Notes under the pieces: model-generated
Told to the model about the DNA's origin: nothing
The model's input: the letters and a program-made list of their open reading frames with translations, nothing else
The model's database searches: none
Program-made: the position numbers and the translations under genes
NCBI RefSeq assembly: GCF_044324875.1
Contig: NZ_CP172185.1
Reading direction: 5' to 3' (one strand)
Source of the DNA: Escherichia coli
GTDB lineage: Bacteria; Pseudomonadota; Gammaproteobacteria; Enterobacterales; Enterobacteriaceae
Length of the DNA stretch: 64,000 bases
Shown: positions 13,763 to 16,979 of the stretch, piece after piece
Layout: the number at the start of each line of letters is the position of its first letter
How positions within the stretch are numbered: the first letter of the stretch is position 1

Positions 13763-14647
13763 ATGGCTATGGAAACGCAGGACATTATCAAAAGGTCCGC
13801 AACTAACTCCATCACGCCGCCTTCTCAGGTGCGTGATTACAAAGCAGAAGTCGCGAAACTTATCGACGTTTCCACCTGTATCGGTTGTAAAGCCTGTCAG
13901 GTGGCGTGTTCGGAGTGGAACGACATCCGTGATGAAGTGGGGCACTGCGTCGGGGTTTACGATAACCCCGCCGATCTGAGCGCCAAGTCCTGGACGGTGA
14001 TGCGCTTTAGCGAAACCGAACAGAACGGCAAGCTGGAGTGGCTGATCCGTAAAGACGGCTGTATGCACTGTGAAGATCCGGGCTGCCTGAAGGCGTGCCC
14101 GTCTGCTGGTGCAATCATTCAGTACGCTAACGGGATTGTCGATTTCCAGTCGGAAAACTGCATCGGCTGTGGTTACTGCATTGCCGGGTGTCCGTTTAAT
14201 ATTCCGCGCCTCAACAAAGAGGATAACCGGGTATATAAATGCACGCTCTGCGTCGATCGCGTCAGCGTCGGCCAGGAACCGGCTTGTGTGAAAACCTGTC
14301 CGACCGGGGCTATCCACTTCGGCACCAAGAAGGAGATGCTGGAGCTGGCGGAACAGCGCGTGGCGAAACTGAAAGCGCGTGGTTACGAACATGCTGGCGT
14401 CTACAACCCGGAAGGGGTCGGTGGTACGCACGTTATGTACGTGCTGCATCACGCCGATCAGCCGGAGCTGTATCACGGTCTGCCGAAAGATCCGAAGATC
14501 GACACCTCGGTAAGCCTGTGGAAAGGCGCGTTGAAACCGCTGGCAGCGGCTGGCTTTATTGCCACTTTTGCCGGGTTGATTTTCCACTACATCGGTATTG
14601 GCCCGAATAAGGAAGTGGACGATGACGAGGAGGATCATCATGAGTAA
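13763..14647 (+). CDS. fdnH: Formate dehydrogenase-N iron-sulfur (beta) subunit
   Basis: 294 aa with four Cys-x2-Cys-x2-Cys-x3-Cys ferredoxin motifs and a C-terminal TM anchor. Confidence 0.95.
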
Positions 14648-15293
14648 GTCGAAAATGATTGTGCGCACCAAATTTATTGATCGCGCCTGTCACTGGACCG
14701 TGGTGATTTGCTTCTTCCTGGTGGCGCTGTCCGGGATTTCGTTCTTCTTCCCGACGCTGCAATGGCTGACGCAAACCTTCGGTACGCCGCAGATGGGACG
14801 CATTTTGCACCCGTTCTTCGGCATTGCGATTTTCGTCGCGCTGATGTTTATGTTTGTGCGTTTTGTGCATCACAACATCCCGGATAAGAAAGATATTCCG
14901 TGGCTGTTGGACATTGTCGAAGTATTAAAAGGCAATGAGCACAAAGTGGCGGATGTCGGTAAGTACAACGCCGGGCAAAAGATGATGTTCTGGTCGATCA
15001 TGAGCATGATTTTCGTGCTGCTGGTGACCGGGGTGATTATCTGGCGTCCGTACTTTGCGCAGTACTTCCCGATACAGGTTGTCCGTTATAGCCTGCTGAT
15101 CCACGCGGCTGCGGGTATCATCCTGATCCACGCCATCCTGATCCATATGTATATGGCATTCTGGGTGAAAGGATCGATTAAAGGGATGATCGAAGGAAAG
15201 GTGAGCCGTCGCTGGGCGAAGAAACACCATCCACGCTGGTATCGTGAAATCGAGAAGGCGGAAGCGAAAAAAGAGAGTGAAGAAGGGATATAA
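14640..15293 (+). CDS. fdnI: Formate dehydrogenase-N cytochrome b556 (gamma) subunit
   Basis: ORF 14598-15293; start set at ATG 14640 ([19 protein letters not shown]), overlapping the fdnH stop by 8 nt; 217 aa. Confidence 0.93.
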
Positions 15294-15372
15294 TCTCTTT
15301 TGAACTTTAAGCTGAAAATGGCGCTGTAAAAGGCGTCATTTTCATATTGTAGACAACGTAGGCTTTGTTCAT

Positions 15373-15469
15373 GCCGGATGCGGCGTGACGCCTTATCCGG
15401 CCTACAAACCCTTCAAATCCAATAGATTGCAGTGAACTTGTAGGCCTGATAAGCGTAGCGCATCAGGCA
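15373..15469. repeat. REP pair (BIME-like): two inverted REP copies
   Basis: GCCGGATGCGGCGTGACGCCTTATCCGGCCTAC (15373-15405) and the inverted copy GTAGGCCTGATAAGCGTAGCGCATCAGGC (15441-15469). Confidence 0.85.
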
Positions 15470-15487
15470 ATGTTGCGTTTGTCATCA

Positions 15488-16196
15488 GTTCTAAATGGCG
15501 CTTTATAAAGCGCCATTTTTTTGTGCACAGAAAACCCCCAGCTAGGCTGGGGGTTCCGGAAAGCTTTCAGCTTTGAGCCAGTTATTAAAACCCCTTTTGA
15601 TTTGTTAAAACACCTTGCGGTCTGGCAACTGCAAGTGTCAAACAAGAAATCAAAAGGGGGTCCCAATGGGGAACGAAAAGAGCTTAGCGCACACCCGATG
15701 GAACTGTAAATATCACATAGTATTTGCGCCAAAATACCGAAGACAGGTGTTCTACAGAGAGAAGCGTAGAGCAATAGGCTGTATTTTGAGAAAGCTGTGT
15801 GAGTGGAAAAGTGTACGGATTCTGGAAGCTGAATGCTGTGCAGATCATATCCATATGCTTGTGGAGATCCCGCCCAAAATGAGCGTATCAGGCTTTATGG
15901 GATATCTGAAAGGGAAAAGCAGTCTGATGCTTTACGAGCAGTTTGGTGATTTGAAATTCAAATACAGGAACAGGGAGTTCTGGTGCAGAGGGTATTACGT
16001 CGATACGGTGGGTAAGAACACGGCGAAGATACAGGATTACATAAAGCACCAGCTTGAAGAGGATAAAATGGGAGAGCAGTTATCGATTCCCTATCCGGGC
16101 AGCCCGTTTACGGGCCGTAAGTAACGAAGTTGGATGCAAATGTCAGATCGTGTGCGCCTGTTAGGGCGCGGCTGGTAAGAGAGCCTTATAGGCGCA
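15488..16196 (+). mobile_element. IS200 (IS200/IS605 family), approximate boundaries
   Basis: Contains an IS200 TnpA gene; left end has the palindrome AATGGCGCTTTATAAAGCGCCATT followed by a T-run and a second hairpin CCCCCAGC-TAGG-CTGGGGG, both characteristic of IS200; ends placed by expected ~0.7 kb length, not by alignment. Confidence 0.7.
15666..16124 (+). CDS. tnpA: IS200 transposase TnpA (HUH/Y1 single-strand transposase)
   Basis: MGNEKSLAHTRWNCKYHIVFAPKYRRQVFY ... HIHMLVEIPPK (HuH motif); AAAGGGGG ribosome-binding site; 152 aa. Confidence 0.93.
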   Translation: MGNEKSLAHTRWNCKYHIVFAPKYRRQVFYREKRRAIGCILRKLCEWKSVRILEAECCADHIHMLVEIPPKMSVSGFMGYLKGKSSLMLYEQFGDLKFKYRNREFWCRGYYVDTVGKNTAKIQDYIKHQLEEDKMGEQLSIPYPGSPFTGRK

Positions 16197-16225
16197 TTTG
16201 AAAAACCTCCGGCTATGCCGGAGGA
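16197..16225 (-). terminator. Rho-independent terminator downstream of higA
   Basis: Hairpin CCTCCGGC-ATA-GCCGGAGG followed by TTTTT on the minus strand, immediately 3' of the higA stop. Confidence 0.65.
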
Positions 16226-16231
16226 TATTTA

Positions 16232-16516
16232 TTATTGCGTAACCAGACGGCGCAGTCGCGACACATCCACCGTTTTTTCTGCCTCTGCCAGACTCCAGGC
16301 GTTTTGCAGATTCAGCCACATTTGCGGCGAACTGCCGATCACCACGGAAAGTTTAATTGCCATTTCTGGCGTCAAAGCTGCTTTTCCGGTCAGCAATCGG
16401 CTTGCCGTTGAGGGCGCAATTTCCATTGCTCTGGCAAACTCGCGCAGGCTGACATTAAGTTCGTCCAGTGATTCCTGAATAATGTCCCCCGGGCGGGGAT
16501 GATTGGCCATTTTCAT
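16232..16516 (-). CDS. yddM: HigA-family antitoxin (XRE-type HTH)
   Basis: 94 aa; [45 protein letters not shown] is a classic HigA/VapI HTH; start overlaps upstream toxin stop by 1 nt (ATGA). Confidence 0.85.
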
Positions 16517-16794
16517 CAGTGATAGTCCTCGTAATCCAGTATGTATGCATCGCCATTGACGAATTCAAATGTGATTCGCCAGTTGCCCGAGACAGATATC
16601 GCCCAAATTCCATCGCGATCACCGCTTAACGGGTGTAGTCGGTAACCGGGCATATCGATATCAGCAAGACAGCTTGCTGCATCAATCACAGCGAGTCGGT
16701 GGCGTAATCGTTTGACTTGCGTCGGTATAACGCCGGAGGTGTTGCCGAGAAGAAACAAGTCACGCAATCCCTTGTGTCTGAAATTCATTATCAT
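16516..16794 (-). CDS. higB: HigB-family toxin (RelE/ParE superfamily, killer-protein type)
   Basis: 92 aa ending [21 protein letters not shown], the typical HigB C-terminus; translationally coupled to the antitoxin. Confidence 0.8.
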
Positions 16795-16805
16795 CTCTTC
16801 ATCCT

Positions 16806-16824
16806 TGTTCCTTCAAAAGGAACA
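16806..16824. promoter_or_regulatory. Palindrome TGTTCCTT-CAA-AAGGAACA just upstream of higB; candidate HigA operator
   Basis: Perfect 8-bp inverted repeat with 3-bp spacer, 12-30 bp upstream of the higB start codon. Confidence 0.4.
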
Positions 16825-16979
16825 CTATCACTATTGTTCCGTGCAGCGCAACAAATTTCGCTACGTTTTCGCGAATTGTGAGGGGAAAGATGGGGGAGGA
16901 AAAGAAGAAGAGTGAAATTGCGGAAAGCGTCTCGCAAAACAGGCTGCGACCCGAACATGGCAGTCGCAGCAAAGGCCTC

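Follow-up and report, generated by a model that had tools for sequence, protein, structure and literature searches.

The window analysed here is a stretch of 64,000 nucleotides of Escherichia coli DNA (RefSeq assembly GCF_044324875.1, contig NZ_CP172185.1; one strand, 5' to 3'), in which an IS200 element lies between fdnI and a convergently oriented toxin-antitoxin operon (higBA, yddM being the antitoxin gene). The features of this interval and the evidence for each are as follows.

14640–15293, plus strand: fdnI, formate dehydrogenase-N gamma subunit (open reading frame list; RefSeq annotation of the aligned comparison loci L001–L007)
15314–15343, plus strand: first of two terminator-like hairpins, a degenerate version of the one at 15493–15522 (local alignment)
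15373–15468, no strand: REP pair, the two units inverted to each other across a linker of 34 nt, a mosaic of BIME type (fold, copy number, partial Rfam matches)
15493–15522, plus strand: intrinsic terminator, a stem-loop at 15493–15518 with a run of seven T at 15516–15522 (terminator scan, fold, empty-site alignment)
15523–16233, plus strand: IS200C, complete, 711 bp (a 711-bp insert relative to empty sites; copies at other loci)
15533–15555, plus strand: IS200 left-end hairpin (exact-match search; fold of −11.7 kcal/mol)
15533–15656, plus strand: full-length match to Rfam RF01405 STnc490, tnpA 5'UTR (146.4 bits, E = 4.4e-31)
15666–16124, plus strand: tnpA, Y1 HUH transposase, 152 aa (Pfam, NCBIfam, translation)
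16206–16224, no strand: IS200 right-end hairpin (terminator scan of both strands; fold of −10 kcal/mol, z = −4.3)
16232–16516, minus strand: higA/yddM antitoxin, 94 aa (identity to PDB 2ICP/2ICT; TIGR02607)
16516–16794, minus strand: higB-type toxin, 92 aa, intact (PF05015; PDB 4MCT_B)
16806–16824, no strand: putative HigA operator 1, TGTTCC-N7-GGAACA, a perfect 8+3+8 palindrome (repeat search)
16835–16853, no strand: putative HigA operator 2, TGTTCC-N7-GCAACA, imperfect (direct repeat family D1)
16943–16970, minus strand: adhP terminator hairpin, which bounds the higBA promoter region upstream (inverted repeat I5, arms of 8 nt with 100% complementarity)

An earlier note, made from the sequence of the window, had listed a REP pair, an IS200 copy and a HigB/HigA-like pair in this order between fdnI and adhP. 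All of the parts that it named are present at or near its coordinates, but the element does not abut the REP pair, since the terminator at 15493–15522 intervenes.

The single gene of the element encodes a Y1 HUH transposase of the ~150-aa class, which matched Pfam Y1_Tnp (PF01797) at 1.7e-37 in a profile search and the NCBIfam equivalog transpos_IS200 (NF033573) at 6.7e-43 (145.9 bits, cutoff 55); its translation contains the HUH motif (as HIH) and a YY near residue 125. Upstream of it lies the structured tnpA 5'UTR (STnc490/art200 region), for which the Rfam gathering score is 56. The left-end terminator hairpin anticipated from the letters is indeed present and occupies nt 11–33 of the element, while nt 12–34 of IS200 have been described as a bidirectional terminator at the left end of an otherwise dormant element (PMC4513863). 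Both ends carry subterminal hairpins that resemble each other (AAAACCCCCAGC.../AAAACCTCCGGC...), each preceded at its 5' foot by a conserved GAAAA, and terminal inverted repeats are absent. In its sole gene for a 152-aa Y1 HUH transposase, its left-end hairpin, 5'UTR and right-end hairpin, and in the lack of both terminal inverted repeats and a target duplication, the element is a typical member of the IS200 group of the IS200/IS605 family, as represented by IS200 of Salmonella and IS1541 of Yersinia. Because the copy is complete, nothing contradicts the earlier claim that tnpA is embedded in a complete IS200.

Over its 711 bp the element matches annotated IS200C copies from other strains and loci with 100% identity, including those at uspE/ynaJ and emrB/luxS (0 differences), whereas 5–10 differences separate it from IS200C copies at its own site. 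It has probably transposed recently. Identical copies at several loci would lend indirect support to transposition through a single-stranded circular intermediate. Relative to IS200C the element itself shows no difference at all; what is unusual is the combination of its flanks, a REP-bearing haplotype on one side and a toxin-bearing allele on the other. A search of 5426 complete E. coli genomes found this combination with IS200 in none, and the left junction of the window at high identity in none either.

The ends of the element were set by alignment with empty sites and with copies elsewhere, the right flanks of copies at different loci diverging immediately past ...ATATTTATT; a TT shared by element and target leaves the exact cleavage positions uncertain by 2 nt. 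The comparison with IS-free strains that the earlier note had proposed recovered the pre-insertion sequence. The empty site in locus L002 reads CCATTTTTTT followed directly by ATTGCG, and the window reads CCATTTTTTT, the 711-bp insert and then ATTGCG, with no target-site duplication. Aligned with the empty sites L002 and L003, IS200C begins directly after the last T of the T-run at 15516–15522, i.e. at the end of an intrinsic terminator with a stable DNA fold (−12.1 kcal/mol, z = −4.6). We considered whether this upstream hairpin could be a part of the element and rejected the idea, because the sequence of the hairpin differs at every locus and remains in the empty sites. It aligns over ~45 nt with the terminator-like hairpin at 15314–15343; the short haplotype (L001, L007) has a single hairpin and lacks the REP pair.

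The same site has been occupied elsewhere. IS200 matches roughly 10,700 places in the 5426 complete E. coli genomes. Its junction with yddM occurs in 308 of these genomes, and among five such loci read in detail the junctions vary by 0–4 nt, one of the five elements being an IS200 variant that has diverged by 25 differences. The T-tract between fdnI and yddM has been struck by two or more IS200 variants that can be told apart, although repeated independent hits could be mimicked by gene conversion among IS copies or by recombined flanks.

The earlier note had also proposed that the hairpins of the REP pair drew the element to this place. The REP pair itself is genuine: its two units (15373–15405 and 15440–15468) are imperfect GC-rich palindromes of ~30–35 nt, inverted to each other, which fold together at −25.9 kcal/mol (z = −5.0), partially match the REP-derived Rfam families naRNA4 and ES036, and belong to a repeat with many extragenic copies (queries containing REP had a median of at least 20–23 places per genome, in 5425 of the 5426 E. 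coli genomes). A Y1 transposase recognising these hairpins and landing alongside would be in line with a relationship between IS200 TnpA and REP-associated tyrosine transposases (a weak match to NCBIfam REP_Tyr_transpos, 1.5e-07, below its cutoff), and at three further E. coli loci (tkt, ccmH and an MFS gene) IS200C likewise lies downstream of a REP. At all three, however, a locus-specific hairpin with a T-run separates the REP from the element, just as in the window, where the REP pair ends 54 bp away from IS200C and the terminator at 15493–15522 stands between them. Moreover, the five same-site loci from other genomes (5/5) all carry the element in the haplotype that lacks the REP pair, at a junction that recurs in 308 genomes; at uspE/ynaJ and emrB/luxS, IS200C again follows a terminator, and the 70 upstream bases read at each contain no REP; and the 115 insertions from other genera described below show a hairpin with TTNTT and none of them depends on E. 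coli REPs. Attraction by the REP pair is already largely refuted on these grounds, and we regard it as very improbable. In the window it is the terminator, with its GC-rich hairpin and the TTNTT behind it, that looks like the target, and not the REP pair.

As a separate observation, a terminator of this kind is directly duplicated at three loci with REP mosaics. These mosaics are associated with a Y1 transposase related to that of IS200, and the duplications hint at a shared affinity for terminators.

To see how far the association with a terminator extends, the 5' flanks of IS200-group elements in other bacteria (Yersinia, Vibrio, Mailhella, Bacillota, Oxalobacter, Brenneria and others) were compiled, yielding 115 unique flanks of independent insertions, drawn from few genomes and with ~45 from Y. 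pestis alone. The frequency of T in these flanks is 100% at position −1, 99% at −2, 87% at −4 and 97% at −5, which defines the consensus TTNTT. A GC-rich hairpin is found within 15 nt upstream in 87% of them; the same hairpin score was reached by 20% of random positions, 15% of TTTTT sites and 12% of T-rich sites outside long open reading frames. Six further E. coli loci obey the same rule of a hairpin followed by TTNTT. In Y. pestis, tandem copies of IS1541 occur in which the left end of one directly follows the right end of another. The pattern of hairpin plus TTNTT in the flanks is solid, and the general idea of the earlier note that IS200 prefers hairpin-forming DNA has held up, the REP having been the wrong hairpin to name.

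Such a pattern could in principle arise with no targeting at all, if IS200 inserted approximately at random in AT-rich DNA and only the copies at harmless spots between convergent genes survived. All of the E. coli IS200 sites that we have seen do lie between convergent genes, where an insertion does least harm, and the first described insertion of IS200, hisD984 in Salmonella, was a polar one (PMC4513863). On the other hand, survival alone would not be expected to place the element with nucleotide precision, always at the end of a T-run (T at −1 and −2 in 99–100% of the 115 flanks), nor to yield a hairpin in 87% of flanks against 12% at T-rich sites outside long open reading frames on the same contigs, nor to bring at least two distinguishable variants to the same fdnI/yddM T-tract. 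This reading is therefore unlikely in our view, albeit somewhat less so than attraction by REP. Selection against gene-disrupting insertions nevertheless contributes to the positions of surviving copies, an influence that the controls lessen but do not remove. An attempt to assign the top strand of the element to the lagging-strand template from the GC skew of the window was uninformative, the values being small and mixed. On the K-12 map, the three E. coli IS200 sites presumably do not share one common replication orientation.

How an IS200 transposase might read a terminator can be sketched by analogy. In the guide-target pairing model of the IS200/IS605 family, a guide tetranucleotide located 5' of the hairpin foot of IS608 and ISDra2 pairs with the target (Barabas 2008, as reviewed in PMC6006769 and PMC5027513). 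The element in the window resembles IS608 and ISDra2 in its insertion 3' of a short specific sequence without duplication, in the GAAAA located 5' of its hairpin feet and in its T-rich cleavage sequences (TTNTT in the flank, TTATT at the right end of IS200). We infer from this likeness that the GAAAA just 5' of each hairpin foot would pair with the T-rich cleavage site, and that the terminator, as a hairpin followed by a T-tract, would mimic the element's own right end (hairpin + ATATTTATT). The likeness has a limit, as the target of IS608, TTAC, needs no neighbouring hairpin, whereas 87% of targets of the IS200 group have a GC-rich hairpin upstream. As a general rule, the selection of intrinsic terminators by the IS200 group with nucleotide precision, through pairing of GAAAA with the T-tract and mimicry of the right end, is a tentative proposal that we hold to be possible but doubtful. 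It is also in part already reported, since a 2025–26 preprint describes an enrichment of terminators upstream of IS200/IS605 elements (bioRxiv 10.1101/2025.07.22.666184). Apart from this family-level enrichment, no explicit statement that IS200 targets terminators was found in the literature searched, which did not cover the older IS200/IS1541 papers.

If the rule were true, it would explain the near-harmlessness and the dormancy of IS200, the repeated hits in the fdnI/yddM T-tract and the tandem copies. In particular, it would give the dormancy of IS200-type elements a structural account, because tnpA would always come to lie behind a host terminator and the element's own. Precise recognition of terminators would further make insertion sites of IS200-type elements predictable and would make such an element a natural case of structure-plus-sequence targeting by a very small transposase.

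At the locus itself the insertion appears neutral. The fdnI terminator is intact upstream, and the stop codon of yddM is preserved or regenerated: this TAA occupies 16232–16234, so that in the junction alignment two of its bases overlap the last TT of the element and may now be supplied by it. The right-end hairpin is followed on the minus strand by TTTTT and therefore constitutes a terminator-like structure just past the yddM stop. In turn, tnpA lies behind two terminators, that of the host and its own, which fits the known dormancy of IS200.

An effect on the toxin-antitoxin pair, through an altered 3' end or terminator of higBA or through IS200-derived small RNAs, with the insertion retained for that reason, was considered as well. 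The right-end hairpin with its TTTTT does replace a native, weaker minus-strand terminator ~8 nt past the yddM stop, and in Salmonella, RNAs that originate from the IS200 5'UTR are reported to act as gene regulators (PMC5435999). Yet the toxin gene is missing from the majority of the 308 genomes that carry IS200 at the fdnI/yddM site, only 7 of which cover 80% or more of the interval with the toxin included, and a function of this kind seems to us highly unlikely. With a neutral insertion retained as the preferred reading, we are confident of the account as a whole: that a complete IS200C entered a terminator between the convergent fdnI and higBA (yddM) at the 3' end of its T-tract and duplicated no target sequence, presumably by guide pairing, apparently without consequence for its neighbours and beside a known HigBA pair. 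The element, the toxin-antitoxin pair and the other parts are all of known kinds and only the targeting of terminators is modestly interesting; at this locus, a well-behaved insertion of a known element beside a catalogued toxin-antitoxin pair has little import.

The assignment of the neighbouring genes to HigB and HigA, made earlier from their translations, agrees with the profile searches. The 92-aa toxin matched Pfam HigB-like_toxin (PF05015) at 2.4e-17 (63.6 bits, cutoff 27), with no match in a search of NCBIfam models, and aligned over its full length with PDB 4MCT_B (E = 1.2e-31, residues 1–92 on 2–93). It shares 52 of 92 residues (57%) with HigB of Proteus vulgaris, and H54, N71, R73, D90, Y91 and H92 are conserved, with H54, D90, Y91 and H92, the residues critical in the P. 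vulgaris enzyme (PMC5027501), identical at the same positions. The 94-aa antitoxin matched TIGR02607 antidote_HigA, an equivalog of HTH-XRE HigA proteins, at 4.5e-27 (93.7 bits, cutoff 47.7) and is 100% identical to PDB 2ICP/2ICT ("antitoxin HigA"; 2ICP is from E. coli CFT073). The toxin gene is the first on the minus strand and its TGA stop overlaps the ATG of the antitoxin gene as TGATG.

The pair is the known HigBA of the CFT073/NRG857c type, described as ParE-2/HigA-2 (TA20), a 279/285-nt pair with a 1-nt overlap that is shared with CFT073 and of which K-12 has the antitoxin only (PMC7232551). The genes in the window have the same sizes and overlap and show no difference from TA20; in K-12, yddM is kept and the toxin is absent. 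The HigB-HigA pair of the P. vulgaris plasmid Rts1 is comparable in that the toxin gene comes first, the 92-aa toxins align end to end, the HigA proteins match (1.3e-18) and, in the window, the toxin start is preceded by two operator-like palindromes; it differs in being plasmid-borne and in its 104-aa HigA, the pair in the window being chromosomal with a HigA of 94 aa. Like HigB of P. vulgaris, the toxin would cleave mRNA as a ribosome-dependent endonuclease, and its translation would be coupled to that of HigA. No published functional test of this E. coli toxin was found in the literature searched.

The palindrome at 16806–16824, which had been pointed out as a putative operator, proved in the repeat search to be a perfect inverted repeat. 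It lies 12 nt upstream of the toxin ATG, its half-sites are conserved in all 7 comparison loci including the toxin-less allele, and the second, imperfect operator follows at a spacing of 29 bp. HigA would most likely repress the operon by binding to these two TGTTCC-N7-G(G/C)AACA motifs at the presumed place of the promoter. A promoter scan of higBA gave no convincing −35/−10 hexamers; its sole consensus match overlaps the toxin start codon and was rejected as the promoter.

The toxin gene is present in 1330 of the 5426 complete E. coli genomes. The K-12-like allele without it is diverged and is not a simple deletion of the toxin gene, an explanation that we rejected as the two alleles cannot be aligned on either side of the operators. 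Both putative operators are kept in it, and loci with and without the toxin encode an identical antitoxin protein. This presence/absence polymorphism of the toxin offers a convenient natural system for the role of an orphan antitoxin. The adhP terminator hairpin is likewise conserved in both alleles.

The interval under study lies on the Escherichia coli chromosome after fdnG-fdnH-fdnI (plus strand) and before adhP and maeA (minus strand). All the parts named in the earlier note were found there, and profile and Rfam matches bore out the identification of IS200, HigB and HigA:

15373-15405 and 15440-15468: REP pair in inverted orientation, 34-nt linker (fold -25.9 kcal/mol, z = -5.0)
15533-15555: IS200 left-end hairpin
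15666-16124: tnpA, Y1 transposase (Pfam 1.7e-37; NCBIfam IS200 equivalog 145.9 bits)
16206-16224: IS200 right-end hairpin, resembling the left-end hairpin
16516-16794, minus strand: 92-aa ORF, HigB-like in the profile search (PF05015, 2.4e-17)
94-aa ORF: HigA (TIGR02607, 4.5e-27), joined to the 92-aa ORF by a TGATG overlap
16806-16824: palindrome, a perfect 8+3+8 inverted repeat

All of these components were already known, and the finding as originally written is ordinary. The most useful by-product of the analysis is a precise hairpin-plus-TTNTT target rule, together with evidence for the T-tract as a recurrent insertion site.

The fdnI-yddM spacer of the window (yddM being the antitoxin gene) was aligned with its counterparts at seven loci in complete E. 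coli genomes. One of these, the empty site L002, represents the window's haplotype minus the IS, reading ...GCCATTTTTTT|ATTGCG... where the window reads ...GCCATTTTTTT[711 bp]ATTGCG..., with no target duplication at the junctions. IS200 copies at other loci agree through ...GGAGGATATTTATT and diverge beyond it. The empty-site alignment and this point of divergence place the element at 15523-16233 (a 2-nt shift of the boundary is possible from a shared TT). Annotated IS200C copies at uspE/ynaJ (strain 042) and emrB/luxS (several strains) match its 711 bp with 100% identity. The IS200 is therefore complete, and the possibility of a tnpA outside a complete element, named in the earlier note as counter-evidence, falls away. 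Matches to IS200 occur in 3094 of 5426 complete genomes, with full-length copies in 2063.

The suggestion that the nearby REP had attracted the element is not supported. The IS200 and the REP pair are not adjacent: AAATGGCGCTTTATAAAGCGCCATTT, a distinct hairpin with seven T behind it, intervenes. It is an intrinsic terminator by score, and its final T is directly followed by the IS. Of the 5426 genomes, 308 carry the IS200-yddM junction; in the loci read (L001, L004, L005 and L006) as well as the top matches, the haplotype is a short one that has a single hairpin and lacks the REP pair. The window's left junction, combining the REP haplotype with the IS, was found at high identity in no complete genome searched. 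The hairpin relevant to IS200 insertion is the terminator, not REP.

Queries containing the REP pair match some 20 or more places per genome in essentially all E. coli genomes. At three loci a REP-linker-REP mosaic is flanked on both sides by copies of the locus-specific terminator hairpin, aligning over ∼45, 38 and 23 nt in the window (15314-15343 vs 15493-15522), downstream of tkt (L132) and downstream of ccmH (L133), respectively. At fdnI, only one hairpin is seen in the haplotype lacking the mosaic; thus, presence of the mosaic accompanies a direct duplication of the terminator. The duplication may have been made by insertion, or the mosaic may have been removed by deletion between the repeats.

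The generality of terminator targeting was assessed by searching a single genome of each species for exact copies of the 21-nt left-end hairpin and reading the 5' flanks. This yielded 115 unique flanks (from Yersinia, Vibrio, Brenneria, Budvicia, Pluralibacter, Edwardsiella, Dickeya, Oxalobacter, Mailhella/Desulfovibrio, Bacillota and other assemblies) with the consensus TTNTT, T being found at positions -1, -2, -4 and -5 in 100%, 99%, 87% and 97% of cases and position -3 being free. A hairpin with 5 or more pairs, 3 or more of them G-C, ending within 15 nt, was present in 87% of these flanks, as compared to 20% of random positions and 15% of TTTTT sites in the same contigs, and 12% of T-rich TTNTT sites outside long ORFs. 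The rule fits six further E. coli loci (uspE, emrB, tkt, ccmH, an MFS gene and the short fdnI haplotype). Wherever the E. coli locus is annotated, tnpA is co-oriented with the upstream gene and the next gene is convergent. A recent preprint reports an enrichment of terminators upstream of IS200/IS605 elements and reads it as limiting transposase expression (bioRxiv 10.1101/2025.07.22.666184); the pattern is thus at least partly known already.

At all E. coli sites examined, including uspE/ynaJ (L128), emrB/luxS (L129-L131) and L132-L134, IS200C lies between convergent genes, its right end 0-30 nt from the downstream gene's stop codon. The exact 21-nt hairpin also occurs in distant groups (Bacillota, Peptococcaceae, Mailhella/Desulfovibrio, Oxalobacter, Saccharibacteria, Elusimicrobiaceae and Vibrio), with numerous copies in many assemblies, frequently at contig ends. 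This points to near-identical IS200 ends having spread horizontally over a very wide range, or to mis-binning of some metagenome contigs.

IS608 and ISDra2 each carry, 5' of the hairpin foot, a guide tetranucleotide that base-pairs with the cleavage site (PMC6006769, PMC5027513). In this IS200 and all variants seen, GAAAA lies 5' of the left hairpin foot, and a GAAAA run also precedes the right hairpin; the flank cleavage sequence is TTNTT, that of the right end TTATT. By analogy, A:T pairing of GAAAA with TTNTT/TTATT, tolerant at the middle position, would account for target choice, and a terminator (GC hairpin plus T-rich tail) would resemble the IS right end (GC hairpin plus ATATTTATT). In Yersinia pestis NCTC5923 (L083, L084, L086 and L100) IS1541/IS200 copies occur in tandem, their left-end hairpins spaced by 710 nt and the left end of one joined directly to the right end of another; these junctions agree with the proposed resemblance.

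Relative to the window's copy, same-site IS200 copies have 5-10 substitutions, the copy in L006, a distinct variant, has 25, and copies at other loci have none. In the spacer alignment the right junction varies by 0-4 nt between strains. We read this as a single T-tract struck repeatedly and independently by IS200; recombination or gene conversion could lie behind part of the same-site pattern.

The insertion looks neutral for its neighbours, since the fdnI terminator upstream is intact, the left-end hairpin of IS200 is described as a bidirectional terminator blocking incoming transcription (PMC4513863), and yddM retains its stop codon TAA (complement of 16232-16234). If the boundary is placed at 16233, the IS now supplies two bases of this codon through its terminal TT. 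In addition, the right-end hairpin on the minus strand is followed by TTTTT, forming a terminator-like structure a few bases past this stop.

The antitoxin is 100% identical to the "antitoxin HigA" of PDB 2ICP/2ICT, a structure cited as HigA of E. coli CFT073 (PMC6987408). Over its full length the toxin aligns with P. vulgaris HigB (4MCT_B; E 1.2e-31, 52/92 identical) and keeps His54, Asp90, Tyr91 and His92, all critical for HigB activity (PMC5027501). The pair has been catalogued as TA20, ParE-2/HigA-2, in NRG857c and CFT073, with the antitoxin alone in K-12 and HS (PMC7232551); a literature search found no published functional test of this E. coli toxin. Of the 5426 genomes, 1330 carry the toxin gene. 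In L007 (strain AVS0967) it has a 1-nt deletion at window ∼16697 and is annotated as frameshifted, and several ST131-type matches fall 1 nt short across the same query, suggesting that they carry this deletion too. Part of the toxin-positive genomes therefore probably have a dead toxin beside an intact antitoxin. The antitoxin accession WP_000781370.1 is common to toxin-bearing and toxin-less loci.

A second, imperfect site (16835-16853, TGTTCC-N7-GCAACA) lies 29 bp from the palindrome at 16806-16824 (TGTTCC-N7-GGAACA). When the K-12-like toxin-less loci L003 and L004 are compared with the window, this block is conserved, only its spacers varying, amid flanks that do not align on either side, which supports a putative functional operator pair. 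Such pairs are usual among HigA-type antitoxins; P. aeruginosa HigA, for one, requires two palindromes (PMC6987408). No -35/-10 hexamers of the higBA promoter could be placed with confidence. The K-12-like allele was also considered as a simple toxin-gene deletion and rejected: the yddM protein and both operator sites are conserved, but neither the yddM 5' leader nor the stretch upstream of the operators is related in sequence to the toxin-bearing allele (L003/L004 vs window 16517-16942).

Two Rfam matches concern the IS itself. The left-end hairpin and structured 5'UTR (15533-15656) match STnc490 full length on the tnpA-sense strand (146 bits, vs a weak 23.5 bits on the opposite strand). Since STnc490/art200 is described as antisense to the tnpA 5'UTR (PMC4513863), the strand of the Rfam model may differ from that of the antisense RNA. 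The Yersinia sRNA Ysr202 gives a weak partial match at 16201-16305 on the minus strand (29.5 bits vs a gathering score of 315), spanning the right end of IS200 together with the yddM 3' end, which most likely reflects IS1541-derived sequence within that Rfam family.
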